Assembly: GCA_000004985.1 (NCBI GenBank)
Contig: GG738912.1
DNA from: Naegleria gruberi
Taxonomy: Eukaryota
Length of the DNA stretch: 64,000 nt
Direction: 5' to 3' (one strand)
Part shown: in pieces, positions 6,998 through 34,058 of the stretch
Layout of the letters: each line of letters begins with the position of its first letter
Numbering within the stretch: the first letter of the stretch is position 1
Made by a program: the position numbers and the translations under genes
The notes under the pieces: model-generated
Seen by the model: the letters and a program-made list of their open reading frames with translations, nothing else
Databases searched by the model: none
Told to the model about the DNA's origin: nothing

Positions 6998-7103
6998 TAT
7001 TGGAATGCAATCACATCCACTGATTTACAAATTGGATAACAAAATAGATTTATTGGAATGCAATCACATCCACTGATTTACAAATTGGATAACAAAATAG
7101 ATT
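6998..7103. repeat. Perfect 53-bp tandem duplication in the upstream region of the gene at 7137.
   Basis: tattggaatgcaatcacatccactgatttacaaattggataacaaaatagatt occurs twice back to back (6998-7050 and 7051-7103). Confidence 0.8.
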
Positions 7104-7136
7104 TCAAAATTCTCAATTTTTAAAAATTAAAAAAAA

Positions 7137-10539: not shown

Positions 10540-11124
10540 ATGTTAATAGAGAATGTTATATTTTCGGATGATGTTTGTTTTGAGATAATTTCCATGATTG
10601 ATGATTCTTGGTTTATTTTGAATAATTGTTGTTTAATTTCAAAACAATGGTTTAATGTGATCAAGGAACGTTCAAAACTTGTTATTCAATTTAACGAACA
10701 ATTTACAGAAAATAGAATTGAATTGTTAATGAAAAGTCAATTCATGAATAGTATTGTAAATGTTAAGTTTTCTTATATGTTGCTTAACTCTCCAGATCAA
10801 GTTAAATTCATAACTGAAATGAAACAATTAACATCACTTAGTATTGCTGGCAATCAAATTGGTGTAGAAGGAGCCAAATTTATAAGTGAAATGAAACAAT
10901 TAACATCACTTGATATACATGATAATGGAATTGGTGTAGAAGGAGCCAAATACATTAGTGAAATGAAACAATTAACATCACTAAATATTGCTGACAATCA
11001 AATTCATGTAGAAGGAGCCAAATTTATAAGTGAAATGAAACAATTAACATCACTTAATATATATTATAATGGAATTGGTGTAGAAGGATCCAAGTACATA
11101 AGTGAAATGAAACAATTAGCGTAG
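10540..11124 (+). CDS. F-box-like + RNI-type leucine-rich-repeat protein. It appears C-terminally truncated relative to its paralog at 55480..56667.
   Basis: The N-terminus resembles the F-box-like region of the 55.5 kb gene (…FEIISMIDD…LISKQWFNVIKERS). It is followed by 4.5 near-identical 24-aa LRR units (EMKQLTSLxIxxNxIGVEGAKFIS) and ends abruptly in a stop. Confidence 0.5.
   Translation: MLIENVIFSDDVCFEIISMIDDSWFILNNCCLISKQWFNVIKERSKLVIQFNEQFTENRIELLMKSQFMNSIVNVKFSYMLLNSPDQVKFITEMKQLTSLSIAGNQIGVEGAKFISEMKQLTSLDIHDNGIGVEGAKYISEMKQLTSLNIADNQIHVEGAKFISEMKQLTSLNIYYNGIGVEGSKYISEMKQLA
10816..11124 (+). repeat. Near-identical 72-bp tandem repeat array (4.3 copies) encoding the LRR units of the gene at 10540.
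   Basis: gaaatgaaacaattaacatcact recurs at 10816, 10888, 10960, 11032 and 11104 with exact 72-bp periodicity. Confidence 0.8.
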
Positions 11125-17374: not shown

Positions 17375-18649
17375 TTTTGTTGTTTTGTTTTGATTTTGTT
17401 ATTGTGGAGTTTAGTGGATTGCTTCTCTGACTATTTATTCGAAAGTTAGTTGACGAATAGACCTACCCAAACTTTCAATAATGGAAACACATCAACAGCT
17501 GTACTTACCAACTGAACGAAAATGGAAAGTCATGTTATCTCTCAACCTATTAATACCCTTAAATACCCCAATCTAAACAAACCAACACACAGGCATTCCA
17601 ATAACAATTTTGTTATTTAGGCTATCAGATGATAAAACCATTTCAAAAAAGACTACAGCACCACAGGTTCCCAAGTTGTCTCCAACCTCAGTACTGATGT
17701 GGCTCGACGATGCTTAACTTCTCAAATCGGACGGGATGAGGTGCATTCATCGTGATATGGCCGTAGCCATTAATTTTCATAACGCCTTAATATTGAATAA
17801 TTTCTGCACATTTCTTGATGTCCAAAGATGATGAAAGTTAGATTTGAAGGAACGACTAATTCTTCATTACTAAGCAGCCTCGGTATTCCATATTCCTTGG
17901 TTATTATTTATTGTTTGGGTCGAAGAATCCATATCGGACCGAAGATACCCTGCCCCATTCTTATATTCCATAATGAGAATAATCTGATCATTGGCAACAT
18001 TGAAATTGTAATCAAGAGTTCCAAGAATATTTGGATGTGAATACTTTCTATGAAATTCAAGCTCACTAATTACATGTTTATAAATACGTAACCTGAAAAT
18101 CTTCTTTACCAGATCAGTCCATGTCTGGGTTTGCTCATATTCTTTTGACTATTGGAAACTCTGATTGCAAGATTGAAACATCACTGCATTACTCATACTT
18201 TTCAAAATCTAAATGTTTCTGTGCAATCGCCGACCACTTCTCAATCTTTTCATTAGTAACATGGAAAATAAGATGAATGGCCACAATTCTTCTTCATATA
18301 TTTCAGTAAGTTGATCGAAACATGTTGAACATTAATCTTTGCAAGTAACTCTCTCGTAAAGGAATTGATTTCTGGAAAGGATTCTGCTAGGGAGAATTTG
18401 AAAATACAGCATTGAACTTCCAATTCCATCCTTCAAAACAAATGGTTAAGGAATCGGTTGAGAGAGCGAAAGGATTCTTCTCAATAGAATTGTTAAACTC
18501 AAAGACTTGCATTTTTAAAATTCGAGTTGTATTAAGCTAATGATTAAATAGTGAGAAAAATAGAGTTTCATGTGTGCAACTTAGAACATCAAAGAACAGT
18601 AGGTTCTTACTGCTAATTATTATTATTGATTTTTTCTGATTACAAAAAA

Positions 18650-21401: not shown

Positions 21402-22883
21402 TTAAATAATTCCTGGAATGAAAATGTACTTGACAGTTTCACAATATTTGTCCCAATCTTCCTTATACTTTCTCTTACATCTTTCAGAATCTCTGTGATA
21501 ACGATGGATAATCATACAGAAGAAGAAGATGAAATAAAAGTATGGAATGAAACTTCCAAATCCACAGATCAAACCCCATGTCAAGCCCATTGTGGTATCC
21601 ATAGTATAGTTCAATTTACGAGCATAAGCCCACCAACCATCAACCAACAATTCACTACCTGCCTTAGTCTTGAGACATTTGGCATTATCTGGCAAAGTAC
21701 CATATGGCAATTGAGGGAAAGTCTTTCTTTCTCTGAAAGTACCATTCTTCTTCATACGGAATCTGTTACGTTGACTTTGAGCAGTATCCCAGAAATAGTA
21801 AGCAACAAAGAGCAAGATGAAAATACAGAGATTGTACCACCAAGGCATGTTAATTTCTTCACCCTTCTTGTAAATGTAAATGGATGAGAAACAGTAAACG
21901 AATGGAACACCAGCCAAATTCCAGTAAATCAACAACCAACCCCATTTTTCATAAAAGATATCCCATGATGATGGAACACATTCTTCACCCTTCATAATGG
22001 CATTGACATAAATTGTGTGGGCAGTTAACATGAAAATCATTGGTGTGGTAATGTATCCGAGTTCTTCATATTGTTTGGCAGCTGCAGAGAGTGTCAACAA
22101 GAAGAGCAAGACCCATGAAATTCTGGCTTCAGTGAACATTTTCAAATCCAAAGATCCTAATCTAGGATTCAAAACAGCTCCCATGAAAAAGTCATAGAGG
22201 AAACTTCCAGACAATCTGTGTTCATTTCCAGTTGCAATAGTATAGAAATAGGTAAAGATAGCAACAAGATTACTGAAAATAATGGCAACAGTTAAAATTG
22301 GAGCAAAATTATCATAGAGCATTGAGACTGGAGCAATTCCAGTAACATACAAGATACCAATGAGTGGCAATGTAATATACCAGACGTGGATGGCATTACA
22401 ATTGTAAATCAACTTTTTGCCACCTTCATGTTCGAGTGGTAAACCTTCATATAAGTCACCAGGAATTAACCAACCCAAAACACCTTCATAAACGATGAAT
22501 CCCATATAAATATTAAAAGCAGTCCAATTTGGTTGAGCAATTTCCCATGCAGCAGACCAATCTACATCCCAAAACCACACTAATTTAGAATCAGTAAATT
22601 CCAAACAATACCAATAATAGTATGGAATGATATGTGAAATTATCATAACAGCAAGACAACCTATTGGTCCACCAAATTCTCTGGCTGCCATATTCAGTAG
22701 AAGCAAAATTATCAGCAAGATACAAACAATTTCACACGAAACGAAACCGAAACAAAACGAAAAATAATTCACACCAATAAATATTCGAATCAACATTCAC
22801 TCTATAACCTACCTTCCTCCTTCTCTTCCTTCTTATTGACCCTTGTTGTGGCCTTCTCTTGTTGTGTTGTTGTCGAAGCCATT
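21402..22883 (-). CDS. Sterol reductase family protein (delta14-sterol reductase / 7-DHCR, ERG4/ERG24 family). Two exons: 22814..22883 and 21402..22684, with a 129-nt intron at 22685..22813.
   Basis: Family signatures LLVDGWWAYARKLNYTMD and the C-terminal …HRYHRDSERCKRKYKEDWDKYCETVKYIFIPGII. The MASTTTQQEK… exon has aaaaaaATG context and a GTAGGT donor. The acceptor …atggcag joins in phase 1 to give …EEAREFGGP…. Confidence 0.65.
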
Positions 22884-24484: not shown

Positions 24485-25810
24485 ATGAGAGAAATTGTCA
24501 GTCTTTTTATTGGAGGATGTGGTAACAGGATTGGAAATTGTTTTTGGAAGGGTATTATGAGGGAACACAATATTGATACAAATACAGGAGAGAGGATTGA
24601 AGGATTTGAAGATGTTGAAGAAAATTTAAATATTTTCCTTGATGAGAGGGAAGATAAATTTGTGCCAAGAGTTGTGATGGCCGATCTGGAGGCTGAAACT
24701 ATTGAATCAATGATTAAGAATGAGAATTTATTGGAATCAAAGTTTGCTTCCTTTCAAAGATGTGGAAATGGAAATTGTTTCTCTAGGGGAATGTACACTG
24801 ATGGAGCTCTGCTTATTCGAAATATAATGGATCAAGCAAGGAAGAGTGTAGAACAGTGTGATTTCTTTGAAGGATTTCAAATGTTTCATTCCATAATTGG
24901 TGGATCTGGATCAGGGCTTGGTTCATTAGTTGTTTCGAAACTCAGAGAAGAATTCCCTGACAAAATGATGGCAACTGCTACTGTATTGCCATCAAATAAG
25001 GATGACTATGGATCTAGGTCTCTTTCACATTATAATGCTGGTCTATCCATGCATTATTTGGTAGAGAATACTGATTTTGTAACTTGTCTAAATAATGAGG
25101 CTCTTGGAAATATCTGTAATAGCAAATTAGGACTGGAGAATTATGGCTATGAACATATGAATAATTTAATCACTCAAGCAATTTGTGGTTTTACTAGTCC
25201 ATTAAGATTTTCAGGAATTTTAAATTCTTCATACAGAAAGCTTTCAACCAACCTCGTTCCATTTCCAAGACTACACTTTTTCACTGTATCTCACTCACCC
25301 TTCTGTCTGGGTGATACTGAACCAACAGTTGAGGGATTAACAAGTGATGTTTTTAATCAGACCAATCTACTGATAAGTATGGATCCAAGTTTAGGCCGTT
25401 ACATGACCAATATCATTACTTATCGTGACAATGAGCCGAATATTTCCATGATTGAGGAATATGTAAGAAAATTCAAAAAGGATAATGAAGCTATTTTCAA
25501 AGAATGGGTGCCAAACAATATTCACACTTCAGTATGTAAATCTATTTCACCAGATTGTCCAACCAAGAGCTCAGCAACAATGGTATCCAATACCAGTGCA
25601 ATCAAAACAGTTTTTAACAAGATTTCCGACCAATTTACTGTAATGTTCAGAAGAAGGGCGTTTCTGCACCAATATTTAGAAGATGGTATGGATGAGATGG
25701 AGTTTACAGAAGCGGAATCAAACTTTAATGATCTTCAATCTGAATATTATGATGATTGGGGTGCGTGGTGTGAAGAAGAGGAAGAAGGAGAGTATGATGA
25801 AGAGCCTTAG
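24485..25810 (+). CDS. Divergent tubulin-family protein with a beta-like MREIV N-terminus and an acidic C-terminal tail.
   Basis: MREIVSLFIGGCGNRIGNCFWKG corresponds to tubulin MREIVHIQAGQCGNQIG. GGSGSGLGSLVVSKLREEFPDKMM is the tubulin GGGTGSG…EEYPDRIM block. Acidic EEEEEGEYDEEP tail. Strongly divergent from canonical alpha/beta/gamma tubulins. Confidence 0.7.
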   Translation: MREIVSLFIGGCGNRIGNCFWKGIMREHNIDTNTGERIEGFEDVEENLNIFLDEREDKFVPRVVMADLEAETIESMIKNENLLESKFASFQRCGNGNCFSRGMYTDGALLIRNIMDQARKSVEQCDFFEGFQMFHSIIGGSGSGLGSLVVSKLREEFPDKMMATATVLPSNKDDYGSRSLSHYNAGLSMHYLVENTDFVTCLNNEALGNICNSKLGLENYGYEHMNNLITQAICGFTSPLRFSGILNSSYRKLSTNLVPFPRLHFFTVSHSPFCLGDTEPTVEGLTSDVFNQTNLLISMDPSLGRYMTNIITYRDNEPNISMIEEYVRKFKKDNEAIFKEWVPNNIHTSVCKSISPDCPTKSSATMVSNTSAIKTVFNKISDQFTVMFRRRAFLHQYLEDGMDEMEFTEAESNFNDLQSEYYDDWGAWCEEEEEGEYDEEP

Positions 25811-26027
25811 AACTAATAAACATGAAGCAACATTTTCTTGCAACTCAACCTCTCATTACTAATTAAGCCAATTGGGGATTGATATTAATTTTCAAACAAT
25901 AACAAAAACTTCACTAGTACTTTACTGTTCTGATCCTTCTTACTCATGTTAATAAAAACCAAACTTTCAAACACTTTCTCTTCTCCACGATTTGTCCAAA
26001 ACCAAAATCATATGGCTCGCCACGTTA

Positions 26028-26098
26028 CCGTCTCGGGAGGAATCGAACCTCCGTCAATGGATTCAAAGTCCACTATGCTACCATTACACCACGAGACG
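26028..26098 (-). tRNA. tRNA-Gln, anticodon UUG.
   Basis: Minus-strand sequence CGTCTCG-TG-GTGT-AATGGTA-GCAT-A-GTGGA-CTTTGAA-TCCAT-TGAC-GGAGG-TTCGATT-CCTCC-CGAGACG-G. It has a perfect 7-bp acceptor stem, a GG-containing D-loop, a TTCGATT T-loop, and TTG in the anticodon loop. No intron. Confidence 0.8.
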
Positions 26099-26362
26099 AG
26101 CACATTAAGGTTGATTATAATTTAGTTATTACACTCATGACCATTTTCAATCTGTACTGTATTTGCGTTTCATGTCCCTTTGCTAAATTACATTGTATAA
26201 GAAAGGACTTGGAACATATTGCCATTTACAATTCAAAACGTAGAAACATTTTTTCTTGCTCTTCCTCATTACTTATTAAGGCAATAGAAGATTTGGCGCC
26301 TTTAAAATTCACACTTTCAAACAATTTTTCACAAACAAAAAAACAACAACACCACAACCAAT

Positions 26363-27433: not shown

Positions 27434-27989
27434 GAAATTGTATTGTATTTGATAAACTATCTTCAATTTTCATTATAATTTCATAAATTTGTGTTTCTCT
27501 TTTCCAAGTTTCATCAATTCCAATCGCTTCAACATATGGAGATGGATCAGGAACAATCCATGATGTTTGGCATCACATCCATCTGGGTCTTCTCACTATG
27601 TTTATTATCATGTGAAGTTTGTTAAAAATGTGTGTCCCATCTCCAACTATGGAGCACATGGAATGGCTGGAACACTAGGAACATTAACAATGTTTGTTGA
27701 TGTTCTGGTTTCAATGATTAGAAGTGTCAAAGGTATTATTTACAATGGAATTGAAAAGTATCGTGTTACTTTCTTTTAACATATCTTTCAACTCGCTTCT
27801 GTTGTAAACTAAAAACGCCATTTGTTAAAAACGACACTTTTCAAAAATGTACCTACTTAAAAATCTCCAAATTTGAACAATTACAATATTCTTCCATAAT
27901 TGTTCACTGACAAGTGTCAAATAAATAGAAGCTTCCACCTGCCATCCATCACTTTTTCACAAACAAAAACAAAAACAAATACAACAAAC

Positions 27990-28349
27990 ATGTCCTATCC
28001 AATTCCAACTCCATACGAATGGTCAACCACTCTCGATATTGGCAATGCTGAATTAAACGAACAACATAAGAAACTCTTCACTTTAATCAATGCCTTGGAT
28101 GCCAAGAGAAGTTGTGGCACAACATTGAAGGAATTATTAGATTACGTTGTTTTCCACTTCAAGACTGAAGAAGATTTGTTTGCTAAGGCTGGTTGGTCTG
28201 AATCTGCCTCTCATAAGGAAACTCATGATAAGTTTGTTCAGGATGCTTTGGCATTGACAAGCGTTGGAGATGGTGAGATGCAATTTATTAAGCAATGGTT
28301 GATTACTCACATTTGTGCCTCTGATATGAAGTATAAGGGTGTTATTTAA
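27990..28349 (+). CDS. Hemerythrin (O2/iron-binding HHE-domain protein), about 119 aa.
   Basis: Aligns along its full length to metazoan hemerythrin: …YEWSTTLDIGNAELNEQHKKLF…HF.TEE.LF…HKETHDKFV…WLITHICASDMKYKGVI, including the conserved His/Glu iron ligands. Start is the internal Met at 27990 (acaaacATG). Confidence 0.75.
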   Translation: MSYPIPTPYEWSTTLDIGNAELNEQHKKLFTLINALDAKRSCGTTLKELLDYVVFHFKTEEDLFAKAGWSESASHKETHDKFVQDALALTSVGDGEMQFIKQWLITHICASDMKYKGVI

Positions 28350-28600: not shown

Positions 28601-30513
28601 TCAGGTTAATGACATTTTATACCAACAATTGATTTCTTCTAATTTTTTTTCAATAGAACTCAAAGTCAAATGTTCTTGTAAAGTTTCAACAAACGTTTCA
28701 CAATTGCGCAAAGTAGTGTTTGCTTGATGGGTGTTACCAAATACTTTTTGTTTGATTACTGACATCTTACCTTTAACAAAGTATACCTTCTCAGTCAATT
28801 CATGCAATTTTTCCCACATTTCAGAATTTTCCTCTGGTTGACTGAGTGAAATCTGATTGTTACTGAATGTGAATTTTTCACTGAAGAATGTTGACCTACT
28901 CACTACATCATGTACATTAACAGTAAACACGCCGTCTTGGTCAACTCTGCATTCAACACATATTTTATGGTTAGAGGCAGGCTTTTGATCAATTTTTATG
29001 ATTGAATTGGTTAGTAATTCTAACATTGAGCTAATTTCAGATTCTCCCTCTCTGAAGGTCAAATTAATCTCTTTCGTTTCGTCTGATGAATTTGTAACTG
29101 CCAATAGTTTTTTACAAGGCAAAGGTGTTCCCTTTTCCAGAACCTTAATTAAGGAATTATTTTGATATTCCTTAATTCGAATAGTTCTTGAAAGACATTC
29201 AGTAATAGGAATGGCTTGTTTTTGATAAAGATCATGAGCCAAGTAGGCAGCTCCATAACTAACGATATAAATTATGTCACTATTTTGTGGTCTAGTAATT
29301 GTCTTTAACAAGTCAACTCACTGTCAAGTTATTAAATCTTACTTACAACTCCAGGTAGTTCATCTTGCACCCAATCTTTCACAAATGGAATAAGAGATGA
29401 TCCTCCAACCATAAGAACCTCATTAATATCACATCCAAGTTCTTTAAATTTTGAAATTAAGGTCTGGACCCTTTTTTGGAACGCCTCCTCACAATCTCTC
29501 TTAAATTGCTCATAATTCACAGAAATAATCAAAGATAAATCATTCTCAGGAATCTCAATACTAAAGTATTCAACATTTCGTCTAGTTGAACATAAGGTTT
29601 CTTTCAAAATTCTTGCCTTTGCACTCAACTTGTGTTTAACTTCTTTCTTTAAATTATTCAACTGAGATGTCAATGATTTTTCTTCGAGTGTCATGGAAGA
29701 TGCTCCAAACCAAACAGGTTTAATGTAATTTTGGAAAACCAAATTATCAACATCAACACCTCCCAAAGTAGAATCTCCCTCAACCCATTTCACAATAAAT
29801 TCCAATTGACTATCATGATTTTTACAAACTTGAATGAGTGAAATGTCCAAAGTTCCACCACCAAAATCAAATACCAAGTAATTACCTTCCCCTCTTTGAG
29901 GATCTTTCTTAAAATAGTAATAGGCAGCTGCGGATGGTTCTGGTAATAATTTCAAAACCTTAATGTTTGATTTTCTAGCTGCTTCCAAAGTTGCATTCTT
30001 TTGGAAAACTCCAAATTCAGCTGGAACTGTAATGACTGCTGGAATTTCTTGATCTTTTCTAAATACGGTTACATTTTCAAGAATTTTTTGAGCTACCAAT
30101 TCTGGAGAAATGTCAAGAAACTTTCCGTTTTCAAATACGAAACGACATGTGGCAAGTTGGTTCTCTTGATTAGCAACTATTTTGTAATCTAATTTCTTTT
30201 CATTTTCTTGAATGACGGCCACTTGATTGTCTTTTCTATCCAAACATTAAGAATAGTCAAAGTTTCGTCAACTAACTTACCTTTTACCAATGATTCGTTT
30301 AGTTTCTGTAGCGTAGAGAACACCATTAACATCTTCCAATTCTCCAACACCAGTTTGAAATGATTCTCCGTTTATACAGCTTACATTCACAACAGAGTTT
30401 TGGAAATTACATGATCCTTGTGAAATATATTTCGTATATCCAAATTCATCAATGTACGAAACAATGGTTGTGCTAGTACCTAGATCAATACCAATACACT
30501 TAATATCACTCAT
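28601..30513 (-). CDS. Divergent Hsp70-like protein (A). Three exons: 30281..30513, 29347..30235 and 28601..29302, with introns at 30236..30280 (45 nt) and 29303..29346 (44 nt).
   Basis: Motifs IGIDLGTSTTIVSY, …IIGKR|KDNQVAV…, AVITVPAEF, LLPEPSAAAYYY, LVFDFGGGTLDISL, LGGVDVD, LMVGGSSLIPFV and …NSDIIYIVSYGAAYLA are kept in frame by GTAAGT donors and AG acceptors. Joins ORFs 30277..30654, 29332..30243 and 28601..29311. Confidence 0.7.
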
Positions 30514-30562
30514 TTTTTTTAAAAGAAACACATACTTCACATCATGCATGACATATAAACTA

Positions 30563-30626
30563 TCACGTTTTCGAATAAACCCACTCACGTTTCGAAATTT
30601 AGAGTTTACAATATTCACGTTTCGAA
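30563..30626. promoter_or_regulatory. Promoter of Hsp70-like gene A, containing three copies of TCACGTTT(T)CGAA (reverse complement of …GAAACGTGA).
   Basis: Copies at 30563-30575, 30585-30596 and 30615-30626, immediately upstream of the ATG at 30513. Confidence 0.4.
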
Positions 30627-30634
30627 TCAATCTT

Positions 30635-32101
30635 TTAATTGATATTTTTAACAAACGAAACCTTATAATTTCTAATCATCAGCTCCCTCAGAATACAACC
30701 AACAGAAATCATACTGCCATTATTCAAATATCTACGATTTTCTCCCTTTTTGAATTTTGACAAGCTTGGAATATTCCACAATCCTCCAACAAGTAGTAAT
30801 TGATTACTGTTAAATATTGGCATATTTTCATCAAGAGTTAATTCAGGAAATTCGCTTCTTTTGATAAAAACTGGTCCTTCAAGACTATCCTCTCCAAAAA
30901 TCATTCTAATAGTTTCGGATATAGAAATTTCGTCATCTTGACCATATTGATACATATTCATCATGAGTTTGTTCATTTGAAATGTAAATTTTGCACTTCT
31001 TTCGTCTTTGATATCATTCGTTTTCAATTCTCCATTTTCATACCTGTAATTCAATTTGCAACGAACCAAGATTCGATTACAAAAATCTGAAAGTATTTTA
31101 ACTCCACTAAAACTGAAGCTATATAATACTGTGGATTCGAATACTAGGGAATTGGAATCTTTCCTCACTATACATTGATAGGTGCCTGTACCTGATAAAT
31201 TGAAAATGCTGAACTGAATGCTCATTTCTTTGAATTGTTGCAGAGACGTTTCGTCAGGTTCTTTTTTAAAATCTAACTGATAGAATTGAGCTACATAATA
31301 TGAAATTACAGCCTCGTGCTCAAAACAAGTAGAATTGTTTACAATCTTACTGTCACAATGAAGCTCCCATCCGTATGGAATGGCTGTAATAAATTTCTTA
31401 TTCGAATCTTCATCAATTTGTTTTGAAAATGCTCCAATTAAATGATATATTAAATTACTATTCAATTTTCTTTCTGGAATATTTGAGAATTTTCTGAAAT
31501 ATTCAATGGAAAGCGCTGGTTGACCTTCTGTGATCTCTAACACTTGTTCTCCAATCATATTAGAATAAAATACAGAGGTTATTCTTGTTGAATACAGATC
31601 ATTAATTTTTGATGAACCAATGTTATGATAACTTGCTTGTGAATAAAAAGTTCCACAATCAATTCCAATAATTTGATGAATTTTGTATTCACTTTCCTCC
31701 ATAATTGGTTCCACAGGGTTCTCATTTGAATTTTTCTCGATAGATGTTTGGGTTTCATAATTTTCAACAATTACTTGGACATCCCCTTCCAAATTTTCAT
31801 TCATTTTACAATAGTTAATATGGTTTTCTTCTTCTTTTGGCTCCTCAATTGACATTCTCTTCTCCGTCTTAATTTTACAATCACTTTCATCATTCATAAC
31901 CCATTCTCCCATAATTTCATTCCTCATATGAACTATTTTTAAATCCTTTACATTAGTTTGCTGAGTTCTACATTGTTTGTAATCATCAAATGCACTATCG
32001 TCATCCGTGCTGTGTTGACTCGTAATAATTAATTTTTTGATAGACCTTTTGAATGTTGTGGCTGATCTTTTAATTTTTTGAAACGCCATTTTCTTTTGCA
32101 T
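30635..32101 (-). CDS. Highly divergent Hsp70/actin-fold ATPase-like protein (B) with a ~160-aa N-terminal extension.
   Basis: IIGIDCGTFYSQASY (phosphate-1), FNLSGTGTYQCIV (DLGGGTFD-like) and LLLVGGLWNIPSL (VGGSTRIP-like). The ATG at 32101 is the first true ATG; the ORF-track start at 32140 is TTG. Confidence 0.5.
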   Translation of the reverse strand: MQKKMAFQKIKRSATTFKRSIKKLIITSQHSTDDDSAFDDYKQCRTQQTNVKDLKIVHMRNEIMGEWVMNDESDCKIKTEKRMSIEEPKEEENHINYCKMNENLEGDVQVIVENYETQTSIEKNSNENPVEPIMEESEYKIHQIIGIDCGTFYSQASYHNIGSSKINDLYSTRITSVFYSNMIGEQVLEITEGQPALSIEYFRKFSNIPERKLNSNLIYHLIGAFSKQIDEDSNKKFITAIPYGWELHCDSKIVNNSTCFEHEAVISYYVAQFYQLDFKKEPDETSLQQFKEMSIQFSIFNLSGTGTYQCIVRKDSNSLVFESTVLYSFSFSGVKILSDFCNRILVRCKLNYRYENGELKTNDIKDERSAKFTFQMNKLMMNMYQYGQDDEISISETIRMIFGEDSLEGPVFIKRSEFPELTLDENMPIFNSNQLLLVGGLWNIPSLSKFKKGENRRYLNNGSMISVGCILRELMIRNYKVSFVKNIN

Positions 32102-32243
32102 AAAAAACGTGAAGTTTACAAAAAGTTGGTCAACCAGCAATCACGTAATCACGTTTGTTATTAATAGAAAATATAAAACGTGAAACCTGTGGAAATAATC
32201 GATTTTTGCAATCAACACTTTCTAATAATTATTTCAAAAGAAA
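32102..32243. promoter_or_regulatory. 142-bp bidirectional promoter between Hsp70-like genes B (-) and C (+), carrying several ACGTGA-core motifs.
   Basis: AAAACGTGAAG (32103-13), TCACGTAATCACGTTTG (32141-57) and AAAACGTGAAAC (32176-87). Confidence 0.4.
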
Positions 32244-34058
32244 ATGATCACCCCAATCTTAGTTGGTATCGATTATGGAACTACCAATACCAAAGCAAGC
32301 ATTCGTGAAGAATACATCTGTAACCAACCTAAATGCATTGAATTTGTAAGTGGTAAAAACTATCTTTCATCAGAGATTGCCATCAACAAGAAAGATAAAT
32401 CTTGCATTGTTGGCTTGGAGGATGGCGAATCAACATATTACAAGATTGCCGAATCCAAACGATTGATTGGCAGAGCCTACAAGTCTGTAATGAATAAGGA
32501 AGATTTTAGTACAAGACTTGGTTACCATGTTGCAAATGTTGATGGAATGGCAAACATTAGAATCAACTCAACCACAGATGGTAGCAATGATGTTGAAATT
32601 ATTGATATCGATCCAAGATTAGTTACTGCTGACATTCTTAAAAAAGTCAAAAAGCATATCATTGATACCAACAACTATCCAGATGATACAATTGTTCAAG
32701 CTGTGGTTACTGTCCCAGCTAATTATGGATATAGTCAGAAATCTGCAACAATGGAAGCTGCCGAGTTGAGTGGATTGCAAGTTCTACTGTTAATCCCAGA
32801 ACCAACAGCAGCTGCACTTGCTTTCTTAGATTCCAAGAAATTCTCTGATGGTTATTATCTTGTAATTGACTTTGGTGGTGGCACTCTCGATCTCTCACTT
32901 GTCCATCTGGAAGGTAAGAAAGTCATTGTAAAGAAAGTGTTTGGTAACATGTTTTTGGGAGGAGGAGATGTCGATCAAGCCATTGCAGAAGTGTTGAAAA
33001 CCAAGATTGACCCAGCACTTGAAATTCCAGTTCAGATTGAGAACATCTTTAGTAAGACTACAGAAATTGTCAATTTCAACAATGCTATTCTAAAGAAAAA
33101 ATCCAAAACACTCAAGGAAATGCTGAGCGAAGGAACCAACGAAGAAATTTCTTTGAGTATTAATTTGAAAGGTTATAGTGGTATGAAAATTGTCAATCTG
33201 TCATTTTCCAAACAAGAACTTTGTGCAGTTTTGAATTCAAAGTTTAGAGAACCTTTTGAAAAGGTCTTGAAAGAATGTAAGAATGGAATGGAGTGTGAAT
33301 TAGATGGTATTCTCCTTGCTGGTGGCTCATCTAAACTACCAACCATTGAATCTTGGACTAGAAATGTGTTTGAACAAGTTACAATTCATACACATGCACA
33401 TGATGTTCAAACTCTTGTTGCAAGAGGAGCTTTCTTAGCAGCAGAGTCAATCAGAAATGGCACAAATCAACTAGAGAATTTGCAAGTGATGGAAGAAGTA
33501 ACCGCAACCCATTTGGGAATTGAGACAAAGAATGTGGTGACTGATAAAGTAGAATTCACAACATTAATTCCAATGCACAGCCCTTTAAAAACTTCCTTTA
33601 CAAAGACCTTTACAAACGTTGTTGATGATCAAGAGAAAGCGAAAATTAGAGTATTGGAAAATTTGTCAGAATCTTTTGAAGATTCTACTGAAATATCCAG
33701 TTTGGTAATCAATATCATGAAAAGAAAGAAGGGAGAAACCAAGATTGATGTTACTTTTTCTGTTGATTTGAATGGTATCCTTCAGGTTGCCATTGTAGAA
33801 CAAGGAAGAGATTCTGATAATAAGCACGAAATCAAAACTACGTTGACCAATTTGTGGACTCCTGAACAAATAGAAGAGTTTCGTAAAAGAAAACATTTTA
33901 GTGTCCAAGAGGTAACTAAGGTTGCAGCACAACAAGTACCAAGCTTGAGTCAAAATCTTAGTAGTCAAATTCAATTTGACCTCTTAGATGAATTATTCAA
34001 AGGTCCAAATAAGCAAGTTCTCATTTTGGATACAGGTGCCAATAAACCATTATTATAA
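32244..34058 (+). CDS. Divergent Hsp70-like protein (C) with both nucleotide-binding and substrate-binding-like regions.
   Basis: VGIDYGTTNTKAS, VVTVPANYGYSQKSATMEAAELSGLQVLLLIPEPTAAALAF, LVIDFGGGTLDLSLV, LGGGDVD, ILLAGGSSKLPTI and VARGAFLAAE. Confidence 0.7.
   Translation: MITPILVGIDYGTTNTKASIREEYICNQPKCIEFVSGKNYLSSEIAINKKDKSCIVGLEDGESTYYKIAESKRLIGRAYKSVMNKEDFSTRLGYHVANVDGMANIRINSTTDGSNDVEIIDIDPRLVTADILKKVKKHIIDTNNYPDDTIVQAVVTVPANYGYSQKSATMEAAELSGLQVLLLIPEPTAAALAFLDSKKFSDGYYLVIDFGGGTLDLSLVHLEGKKVIVKKVFGNMFLGGGDVDQAIAEVLKTKIDPALEIPVQIENIFSKTTEIVNFNNAILKKKSKTLKEMLSEGTNEEISLSINLKGYSGMKIVNLSFSKQELCAVLNSKFREPFEKVLKECKNGMECELDGILLAGGSSKLPTIESWTRNVFEQVTIHTHAHDVQTLVARGAFLAAESIRNGTNQLENLQVMEEVTATHLGIETKNVVTDKVEFTTLIPMHSPLKTSFTKTFTNVVDDQEKAKIRVLENLSESFEDSTEISSLVINIMKRKKGETKIDVTFSVDLNGILQVAIVEQGRDSDNKHEIKTTLTNLWTPEQIEEFRKRKHFSVQEVTKVAAQQVPSLSQNLSSQIQFDLLDELFKGPNKQVLILDTGANKPLL

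Follow-up and report, generated by a model that had tools for sequence, protein, structure and literature searches.

Structure of the locus

The stretch of Naegleria gruberi DNA analysed here (64,000 nucleotides, hereafter the window; GC content 33.6%) carries a hemerythrin gene on its plus strand, accompanied by further protein-coding genes, RNA genes and tandem repeats. The following features were located:

6998-7104: perfect tandem duplication of 53 bp
10804-11118: tandem array of a 72-bp unit (24 codons, LRR-like) in 4.4 copies
17650-17768, minus strand: complete 5S rRNA gene (Rfam RF00001, 105 bits)
21402-22796: ERG4/ERG24 sterol reductase
24485-25810, plus strand: tubulin-family gene, ORF of 441 aa (153 bits on the Tubulin GTPase domain)
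26027-26099, minus strand: tRNA-Gln, anticodon TTG (ARAGORN and Rfam), 1.9 kb upstream of the hemerythrin gene
27990-28349, plus strand: hemerythrin coding sequence NAEGRDRAFT_83311 / XP_002670726.1, intronless, 119 codons and TAA
28065-28067, plus strand: codon of the diiron ligand H26
28155-28157, plus strand: codon of the diiron ligand H56
within 27990-28349, plus strand: codons of the remaining diiron ligands E60, H75, H79, H107 and D112
28601-30654, minus strand: Hsp70-like gene in three ORF pieces, presumably interrupted by introns
32244-34058, plus strand: Hsp70-like gene

The hemerythrin ORF is intact and has no intron: it starts with the ATG at 27990, ends with the TAA at 28347-28349 and translates without internal stops into a single-domain, 13-kDa product of 119 residues (MSYPIPTPYEWSTTLDIGNAELNEQHKKLFTLINALDAKRSCGTTLKELLDYVVFHFKTEEDLFAKAGWSESASHKETHDKFVQDALALTSVGDGEMQFIKQWLITHICASDMKYKGVI). 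In a mechanical list of open reading frames the same frame appeared with 149 aa, starting from a TTG at 27900. This start was rejected as a mere in-frame upstream extension; every homolog begins at the methionine of the ATG and an A/C-rich leader precedes this codon, therefore 27990-28349 is regarded as the real coding sequence.

A GT18-like glycosyltransferase is also encoded in the window. The score of only 153 bits suggests that the tubulin-family ORF represents a divergent tubulin class and not a canonical alpha- or beta-tubulin. The two Hsp70-like genes are divergent and flank an ORF of 501 aa (30635-32140, minus strand), for which no Pfam match was obtained. The 5S rRNA gene is isolated, with protein-coding genes around it, and the hemerythrin gene lies about 10 kb away.

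Family assignment and predicted structure

The original prediction had recognized a hemerythrin along the whole length of the product and had proposed the Pfam profile as a check. The hit to PF01814 spans positions 4-124 of the 127 in the profile and, at 37.2 bits (E 4.8e-9), lies above the gathering score of 25.3. The best sequence matches among solved structures were Themiste myohemerythrin (2MHR/1A7D, E 2.5e-15), which aligned end to end over residues 3-118, and the sipunculan hemerythrins, followed by the bacteriohemerythrin of M. capsulatus and by DcrH. Full-length alignment was also obtained with Themiste hemerythrin (1HMD). The family match is far beyond chance.

The NCBIfam model of the hemerythrin domain (TIGR02481) was passed with a score of 88.1 (cut-off 51.75), and so was the bacteriohemerythrin model NF033749 (93.2, cut-off 84), although the architecture of the window protein is not bacterial; this domain model evidently captures the core common to both types. 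The animal hemerythrin model TIGR00058 was matched over its full length (1-115 of 115, E 2.8e-35) with 121.4 bits, below its trusted cut-off of 131.85, a near miss, as would fit a protein that is related to the animal clade but does not come from an animal.

According to the multiple alignment the ligands of the diiron site are kept at all seven positions: H26, H56, E60, H75, H79, H107 and D112 correspond to H25, H54, E58, H73, H77, H106 and D111 of myohemerythrin. The ligand string read originally from the sequence (H..H..E..H..H..D) is present as a pattern but it omitted one His, since the true set consists of five His together with a bridging Glu and a bridging Asp. The fifth His is H75, which stands in the column of His73 of myohemerythrin; this residue (named His74 in PMC3730353) tells the respiratory clade B apart from clade A, which is that of the FBXL5 type. 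The announced tail WLxxHIxxxDxKYKG fits residues 103-117 (W103-L-I-T-H107-I-C-A-S-D112-M-K-Y-K-G117). The residues lining the O2 pocket could be aligned as well: L29, F57, W103, L104 and I108 correspond to I28, F55, W102, L103 and I107 of myohemerythrin, and these five pocket residues are kept in the window protein and in nearly all of its relatives.

An AlphaFold2 model calculated from an alignment of 27 sequences (pLDDT 94.1, pTM 0.88) predicts helices at residues 20-38, 43-67, 72-87 and 94-115 with an N-terminal arm in front of them. When this predicted model was searched with Foldseek, the first match was 2MHR (TM 0.93, rmsd 1.2 Å over 118 columns), an up-down four-helix bundle, and the bacterial 4XPX stood behind it with a TM of 0.84. 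Judged on the alignment and on the predicted model, ligands, pocket and fold all agree with the classical O2-binding type, and the assignment made in the original prediction is confirmed at this level. A disulfide or redox switch between C42 and C109 was also considered and set aside: the up-down topology would place C42, in the A-B loop, and C109, towards the end of helix D, far apart at the two ends of the bundle.

Animal-type architecture and evolutionary origin

In an exhaustive HMMER scan 7498 representatives were collected at E ≤ 1e-3, and the architecture was compared in roughly 100 single-domain matches, among which two architectures separate cleanly:

Animal type: arm IPxP[FY]xW present, ligand spacings about 29 and 27; the window protein, all Naegleria-like sequences, Themiste Hr and mHr, and two foraminiferans from EukProt
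Bacterial type: N-terminal arm absent, ligand spacings about 36 and 35; most other matches

The spacings between the ligands are 29, 14 and 27 in the window protein, 28, 14 and 28 in myohemerythrin, and 36, 14 and 35 in the bacterial matches. With its N-terminal arm and short inter-helix loops the window protein combines the features by which the animal type is recognized, and as far as sequence and model can tell, it is a hemerythrin of the animal and not of the bacterial type.

The phylogeny proposed earlier for distinguishing vertical from horizontal origin was run as a crude neighbor-joining tree (Kimura distances, 50 resamplings). Forty-two short-type sequences, Themiste Hr and mHr included, formed one clade and 47 long-type sequences stood apart from it. 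The short-type clade has a support of only 64%, without resolution of its internal nodes; the tree yielded the grouping with the Themiste proteins, and an ancient transfer would fit it as well as an ancient origin followed by loss. The grouping itself agrees with the published trees, in which the Naegleria sequences were basal to the animal clade (Bailly 2008, PMC2556348), fell into the respiratory 'clade B', for which an ancient origin with many losses was favoured (Martín-Durán 2013, PMC3730353), or were grouped with Nematostella in sub-group lambda (Alvarez-Carreño 2016, PMC4919030). Hemerythrins had been called sporadic in eukaryotes, which is borne out by the presence of the O2-binding type in 4 of 135 genomes (Alvarez-Carreño 2016, PMC4919030).

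The two foraminiferal sequences (P0039 and P0042) come from the EukProt transcriptomes of the benthic species Nonionella stella and Bolivina argentea; both are single-domain hemerythrins of the animal type, with identities to the window protein of 55% and 47%, and contamination of the transcriptomes is possible. No description of foraminiferal hemerythrins was found in the literature searched. Tandem forms were observed among environmental sequences: a Logan contig encodes a protein of 391 aa (P0034) with three tandem hemerythrin domains after a hydrophobic, signal-like N-terminus, and a marine metatranscriptome contains a protein of 697 aa (P0035) with at least six tandem domains of the animal type.

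Paralogs in Naegleria

The product is identical over its full length to the N. gruberi protein EFC37982.1 / XP_002670726.1 (NAEGRDRAFT_83311, UniProt D2VYW3), and the record EFC37982.1 sits on a contig of 238,573 bp. NAEGRDRAFT_83311 was listed by its locus tag, together with 36233, 83016, 81770 and 44819, as one of the five O2-binding hemerythrins of N. gruberi (Alvarez-Carreño 2016, PMC4919030), and five hemerythrins had been counted in this genome already by Bailly 2008 (PMC2556348). The locus is therefore already known: it is annotated and catalogued, and the family has been studied biochemically. The taxonomic surprise which the original prediction attached to it does not hold, since Naegleria hemerythrins have been on record since 2001, when Nfa1 was recognized as a myohemerythrin homolog, and since the survey of Bailly 2008.

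The gene had also been described as stand-alone, a term that suits the domain architecture but not the copy number, as it is one of five paralogs, some of them only one residue apart. The 'myohemerythrin' NAEGRDRAFT_44819 (XP_002670631.1, UniProt D2V6E6) is identical in 118 of 119 residues with G95A as the sole change, and the sequence with A95 stands on three contigs under the accessions EFC37887.1, EFC38044.1 and EFC47558.1. The two proteins belong to the same species and share the single-domain architecture of 119 aa; they differ in their chromosomal locus and in residue 95, where helix D (94-115) begins in the model of the window protein. The identity to the window protein is 77% for 36233, 77% for the fifth gene, EFC46050.1, and 60% for the ortholog of N. 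lovaniensis. No second hemerythrin copy was detected by tblastn within the 64-kb window.

The 5' flank

The flank upstream of the ATG was aligned with those of four related environmental loci (from GCA_050043615.1, SRR26782601, ERZ4903137 and ERZ929261), and the following putative elements could be delineated:

27722-27728, 27833-27839 and within 27908-27919: AAGTGTC in three copies, clustered in the roughly 200 bp before the ATG
27908-27989, plus strand: core promoter and 5' leader, as suggested by the alignment of the 5' flanks
27908-27919, plus strand: palindrome TGACAAGTGTCA, common to the window and locus L002
27919-27927, plus strand: TATA-like AAATAAATA, 63-71 nt before the ATG, common to the window and loci L003 and L004
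up to the ATG, plus strand: A/C-rich leader, common to the window and all four related loci

The DNA similarity to L002 reaches about 180 bp upstream of the ATG, and no synteny with the four environmental loci was detected downstream. The third copy of AAGTGTC is a half-site inside the palindrome, and the two proximal copies are kept in L002. Across the whole window neither AAGTGTC (11 observed, 9.0 expected) nor the 12-mer palindrome with one mismatch (2 observed, 0.7 expected) is enriched. The local cluster of three sites, a motif picked post hoc, is suggestive of a candidate regulatory element, and it is counted as a lead on account of the reported regulation of Hr by iron at the mRNA level.

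Proposed role of the protein

We are highly confident that the gene is a functional nuclear gene of Naegleria gruberi which encodes a 13-kDa single-domain protein of the myohemerythrin type, one of the five catalogued paralogs, and that the protein would serve as a cytosolic buffer of O2, NO and reactive species and as a holder of non-heme iron. The four-helix bundle is predicted to set five His, one Glu and one Asp around a diiron centre next to the hydrophobic pocket, where O2 would be bound reversibly as established for the hemerythrin family. In such sites the deoxy form, Fe(II)-Fe(II), reacts reversibly with O2 to give a hydroperoxo-Fe(III)-O-Fe(III) form with the hydroperoxide on the five-coordinate iron. 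By analogy with close Naegleria paralogs NO would be consumed as well, and the protein may function as a stoichiometric buffer in the cytosol; it may also hold a large share of the non-heme iron, which the cell would surrender when iron is scarce.

The literature on Naegleria gives this proposal its frame. Hr is abundant in iron-replete cells and about 7000-fold down in iron-starved N. fowleri, with a decrease at the mRNA level too (PMC7326272; PMC7578549); the N. gruberi protein is likewise iron-regulated according to Mach 2018, as cited in PMC7326272 and PMC7578549. The level of Hr rises under copper stress or copper limitation (PMC7578549). The recombinant N. fowleri paralog is monomeric and has the absorption bands of oxy-Hr (330, 380 and 500 nm); each protein consumes about 3 NO (PMC11964265), and the N. 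gruberi protein is described as a monomer of the O2-binding family by Malych 2022, as cited in PMC11964265. The roles proposed in the primary literature are debated and include an iron pool, defence against ROS, NO scavenging and, in the case of Nfa1, phagocytosis and virulence.

Alternative explanations

O2-binding hemerythrins are far commoner in bacteria, the 7498 matches are mostly of the bacterial type, and the subgroup which contains the Naegleria sequences holds proteobacterial sequences too (Alvarez-Carreño 2016, PMC4919030), all of which could point to a bacterial contaminant or to a very recent horizontal acquisition. However, the neighbours are eukaryotic and include intron-split genes, the tRNA and the 5S rRNA; the GC content and the codon usage of the gene fit these neighbours (A/T-ending codons, e.g. 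GAT 8/8 and GAA 8/9); orthologs exist in N. lovaniensis and among N. fowleri-like sequences; and the architecture is that of the animal type. Two circumstances had been named from the outset in which the original prediction would fail, loss of the iron ligands in an alignment and absence of the gene from other assemblies (a contaminant contig). Neither applies: the ligands are kept, and four assemblies of independent origin (GCA_050043615.1, SRR26782601, ERZ4903137 and ERZ929261) carry variants whose DNA is 77-86% identical. Contamination is excluded on the combined ground of eukaryotic flanks, matching codon usage and these close variants, and a bacterial intruder or a very recent transfer is scarcely credible. 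At least three other accessions, on three contigs, hold a sequence that deviates in one residue only (G95A), and this could instead mean that the locus is a surplus haplotype of the assembly or a silent copy of NAEGRDRAFT_44819, and not an independently functioning gene; the 64-kb window is without a second copy, and copies one residue apart are poorly separated by proteomics or antibodies, which leaves room for a silent duplicate or an allelic haplotype. We find this quite unlikely: the reading frame is intact, several other Naegleria-like sequences (P0006, P0008, P0009 and P0010) naturally have G at position 95, the locus has its own unique eukaryotic flanks, and even an allelic copy would still encode a working hemerythrin. 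Among the related sequences a Logan protein of 146 aa (P0024) was also seen, whose first ~44 residues are 79-85% identical to the hemerythrin before the sequence becomes divergent and whose N-terminal extension is unrelated; a related amoeba probably has here a paralog with an intron or a frameshift.

As for the function, the protein is among the most strongly iron-regulated ones and is abundant when iron is replete, and a cytosolic iron pool or buffer was proposed outright by Arbon 2020 and Grechnikova 2020 (PMC7326272; PMC7578549), so that its main role could be that of an iron reservoir or sink against Fenton chemistry, with ligand binding being incidental. This is a tenable though doubtful option: with only two Fe per 13-kDa chain the protein stores iron poorly for its size, O2 and NO are both bound in vitro by the close paralog (PMC11964265), and selection on ligand binding is suggested by the O2 pocket, which is kept strictly in the sequences of Naegleria, foraminifera and animals. 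An iron store overlaps with the buffer explanation and does not exclude it. The original prediction had thought of oxygen or iron sensing, and hemerythrin domains do serve as sensors in other systems, where, as in FBXL5, DcrH or Bhr-DGC, the state of the domain controls an output. For the window protein a sensor of this kind is highly improbable, since the domain of 119 aa stands alone between non-coding flanks at both sides, closed by a stop codon and with no fused output domain; moreover its architecture and fold are nearest to the carrier and storage proteins myoHr and Hr, and its high abundance is atypical for a sensor. Because the literature describes an abundant, iron-regulated protein which binds O2 and NO, and because an output domain is lacking, a stoichiometric buffer of O2, NO and iron appears more likely than a sensor by analogy with the proteins studied so far, and the sensing role suggested originally was not retained.

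Wider implications

The locus itself is of little import, as it is annotated, it appears in three published hemerythrin surveys and the family is covered by Naegleria proteomics and spectroscopy. The wider question, why one aerobic amoeba has five copies of an animal-type O2-binding diiron protein, is of moderate interest; it touches on how hemerythrin ties iron economy to the handling of O2, NO and ROS, and on whether respiratory hemerythrins reach back to early eukaryotes. The ortholog Nfa1 of the pathogen N. fowleri is in addition a candidate virulence factor and vaccine antigen.

Besides Heterolobosea, two foraminifera (Nonionella and Bolivina) and environmental tandem poly-hemerythrins were seen to have hemerythrins of the animal type. 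One may speculate that the near-identical N. gruberi copies were amplified for dosage and have an iron-responsive cis element in common (with AAGTGTC / TGACAAGTGTCA as the candidate), and that hemerythrins of this type are much wider in hypoxia-tolerant protists than the literature records; as a joint proposal this seems rather unlikely to us. If it were true, the wide spread in protists would favour an ancient eukaryotic origin of the 'respiratory' hemerythrin over an animal innovation or a bacterial transfer.

Comparison with known systems

Among the closest known relatives are Nfa1 and its paralog 'Nf hemerythrin' (A0A6A5BXL4) of N. fowleri, myohemerythrin-like proteins of 119 aa and 13.1 kDa encoded by 360-bp genes, the iron ligands of which are identical to those of the window protein. 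The Nfa1-like sequence P0004 shares 73% of its residues with the window protein and resembles the recombinant N. fowleri paralog; Cys42 and Cys109 of the window protein are replaced by Ser and Lys in the N. fowleri-like sequence. Nfa1 of the pathogenic N. fowleri is also described as a food-cup and pseudopod antigen and as a virulence factor, a role the evidence for which does not extend to N. gruberi.

DcrH-Hr of Desulfovibrio (2AVK) and human FBXL5 share the hemerythrin-like diiron four-helix bundle, and DcrH is matched at E about 1e-9. In both of them the domain belongs to a larger fusion with signalling or ubiquitin-ligase modules, whereas the window protein consists of one Pfam domain alone, and the FBXL5-type proteins form the separate, non-respiratory clade A (PMC3730353). 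The bacteriohemerythrin of Methylococcus capsulatus (4XPX; NF033749) has the same diiron site and fold as the window protein, but the bacterial proteins are without the N-terminal IPxPFxW arm and their A-B and C-D connections are longer.

The animal hemerythrins compared here serve for storage or transport of O2 in muscle and coelom, and the coelomic Hr is octameric whereas the Naegleria Hr is reported to be monomeric. The identity of the Themiste and sipunculan proteins to the window protein is about 32-34%; nevertheless, Themiste zostericola myohemerythrin (2MHR) and the sipunculan hemerythrins (1HMD, 1I4Y) have the same length, N-terminal arm, four-helix bundle, ligands and pocket as the hemerythrin of this amoeba.
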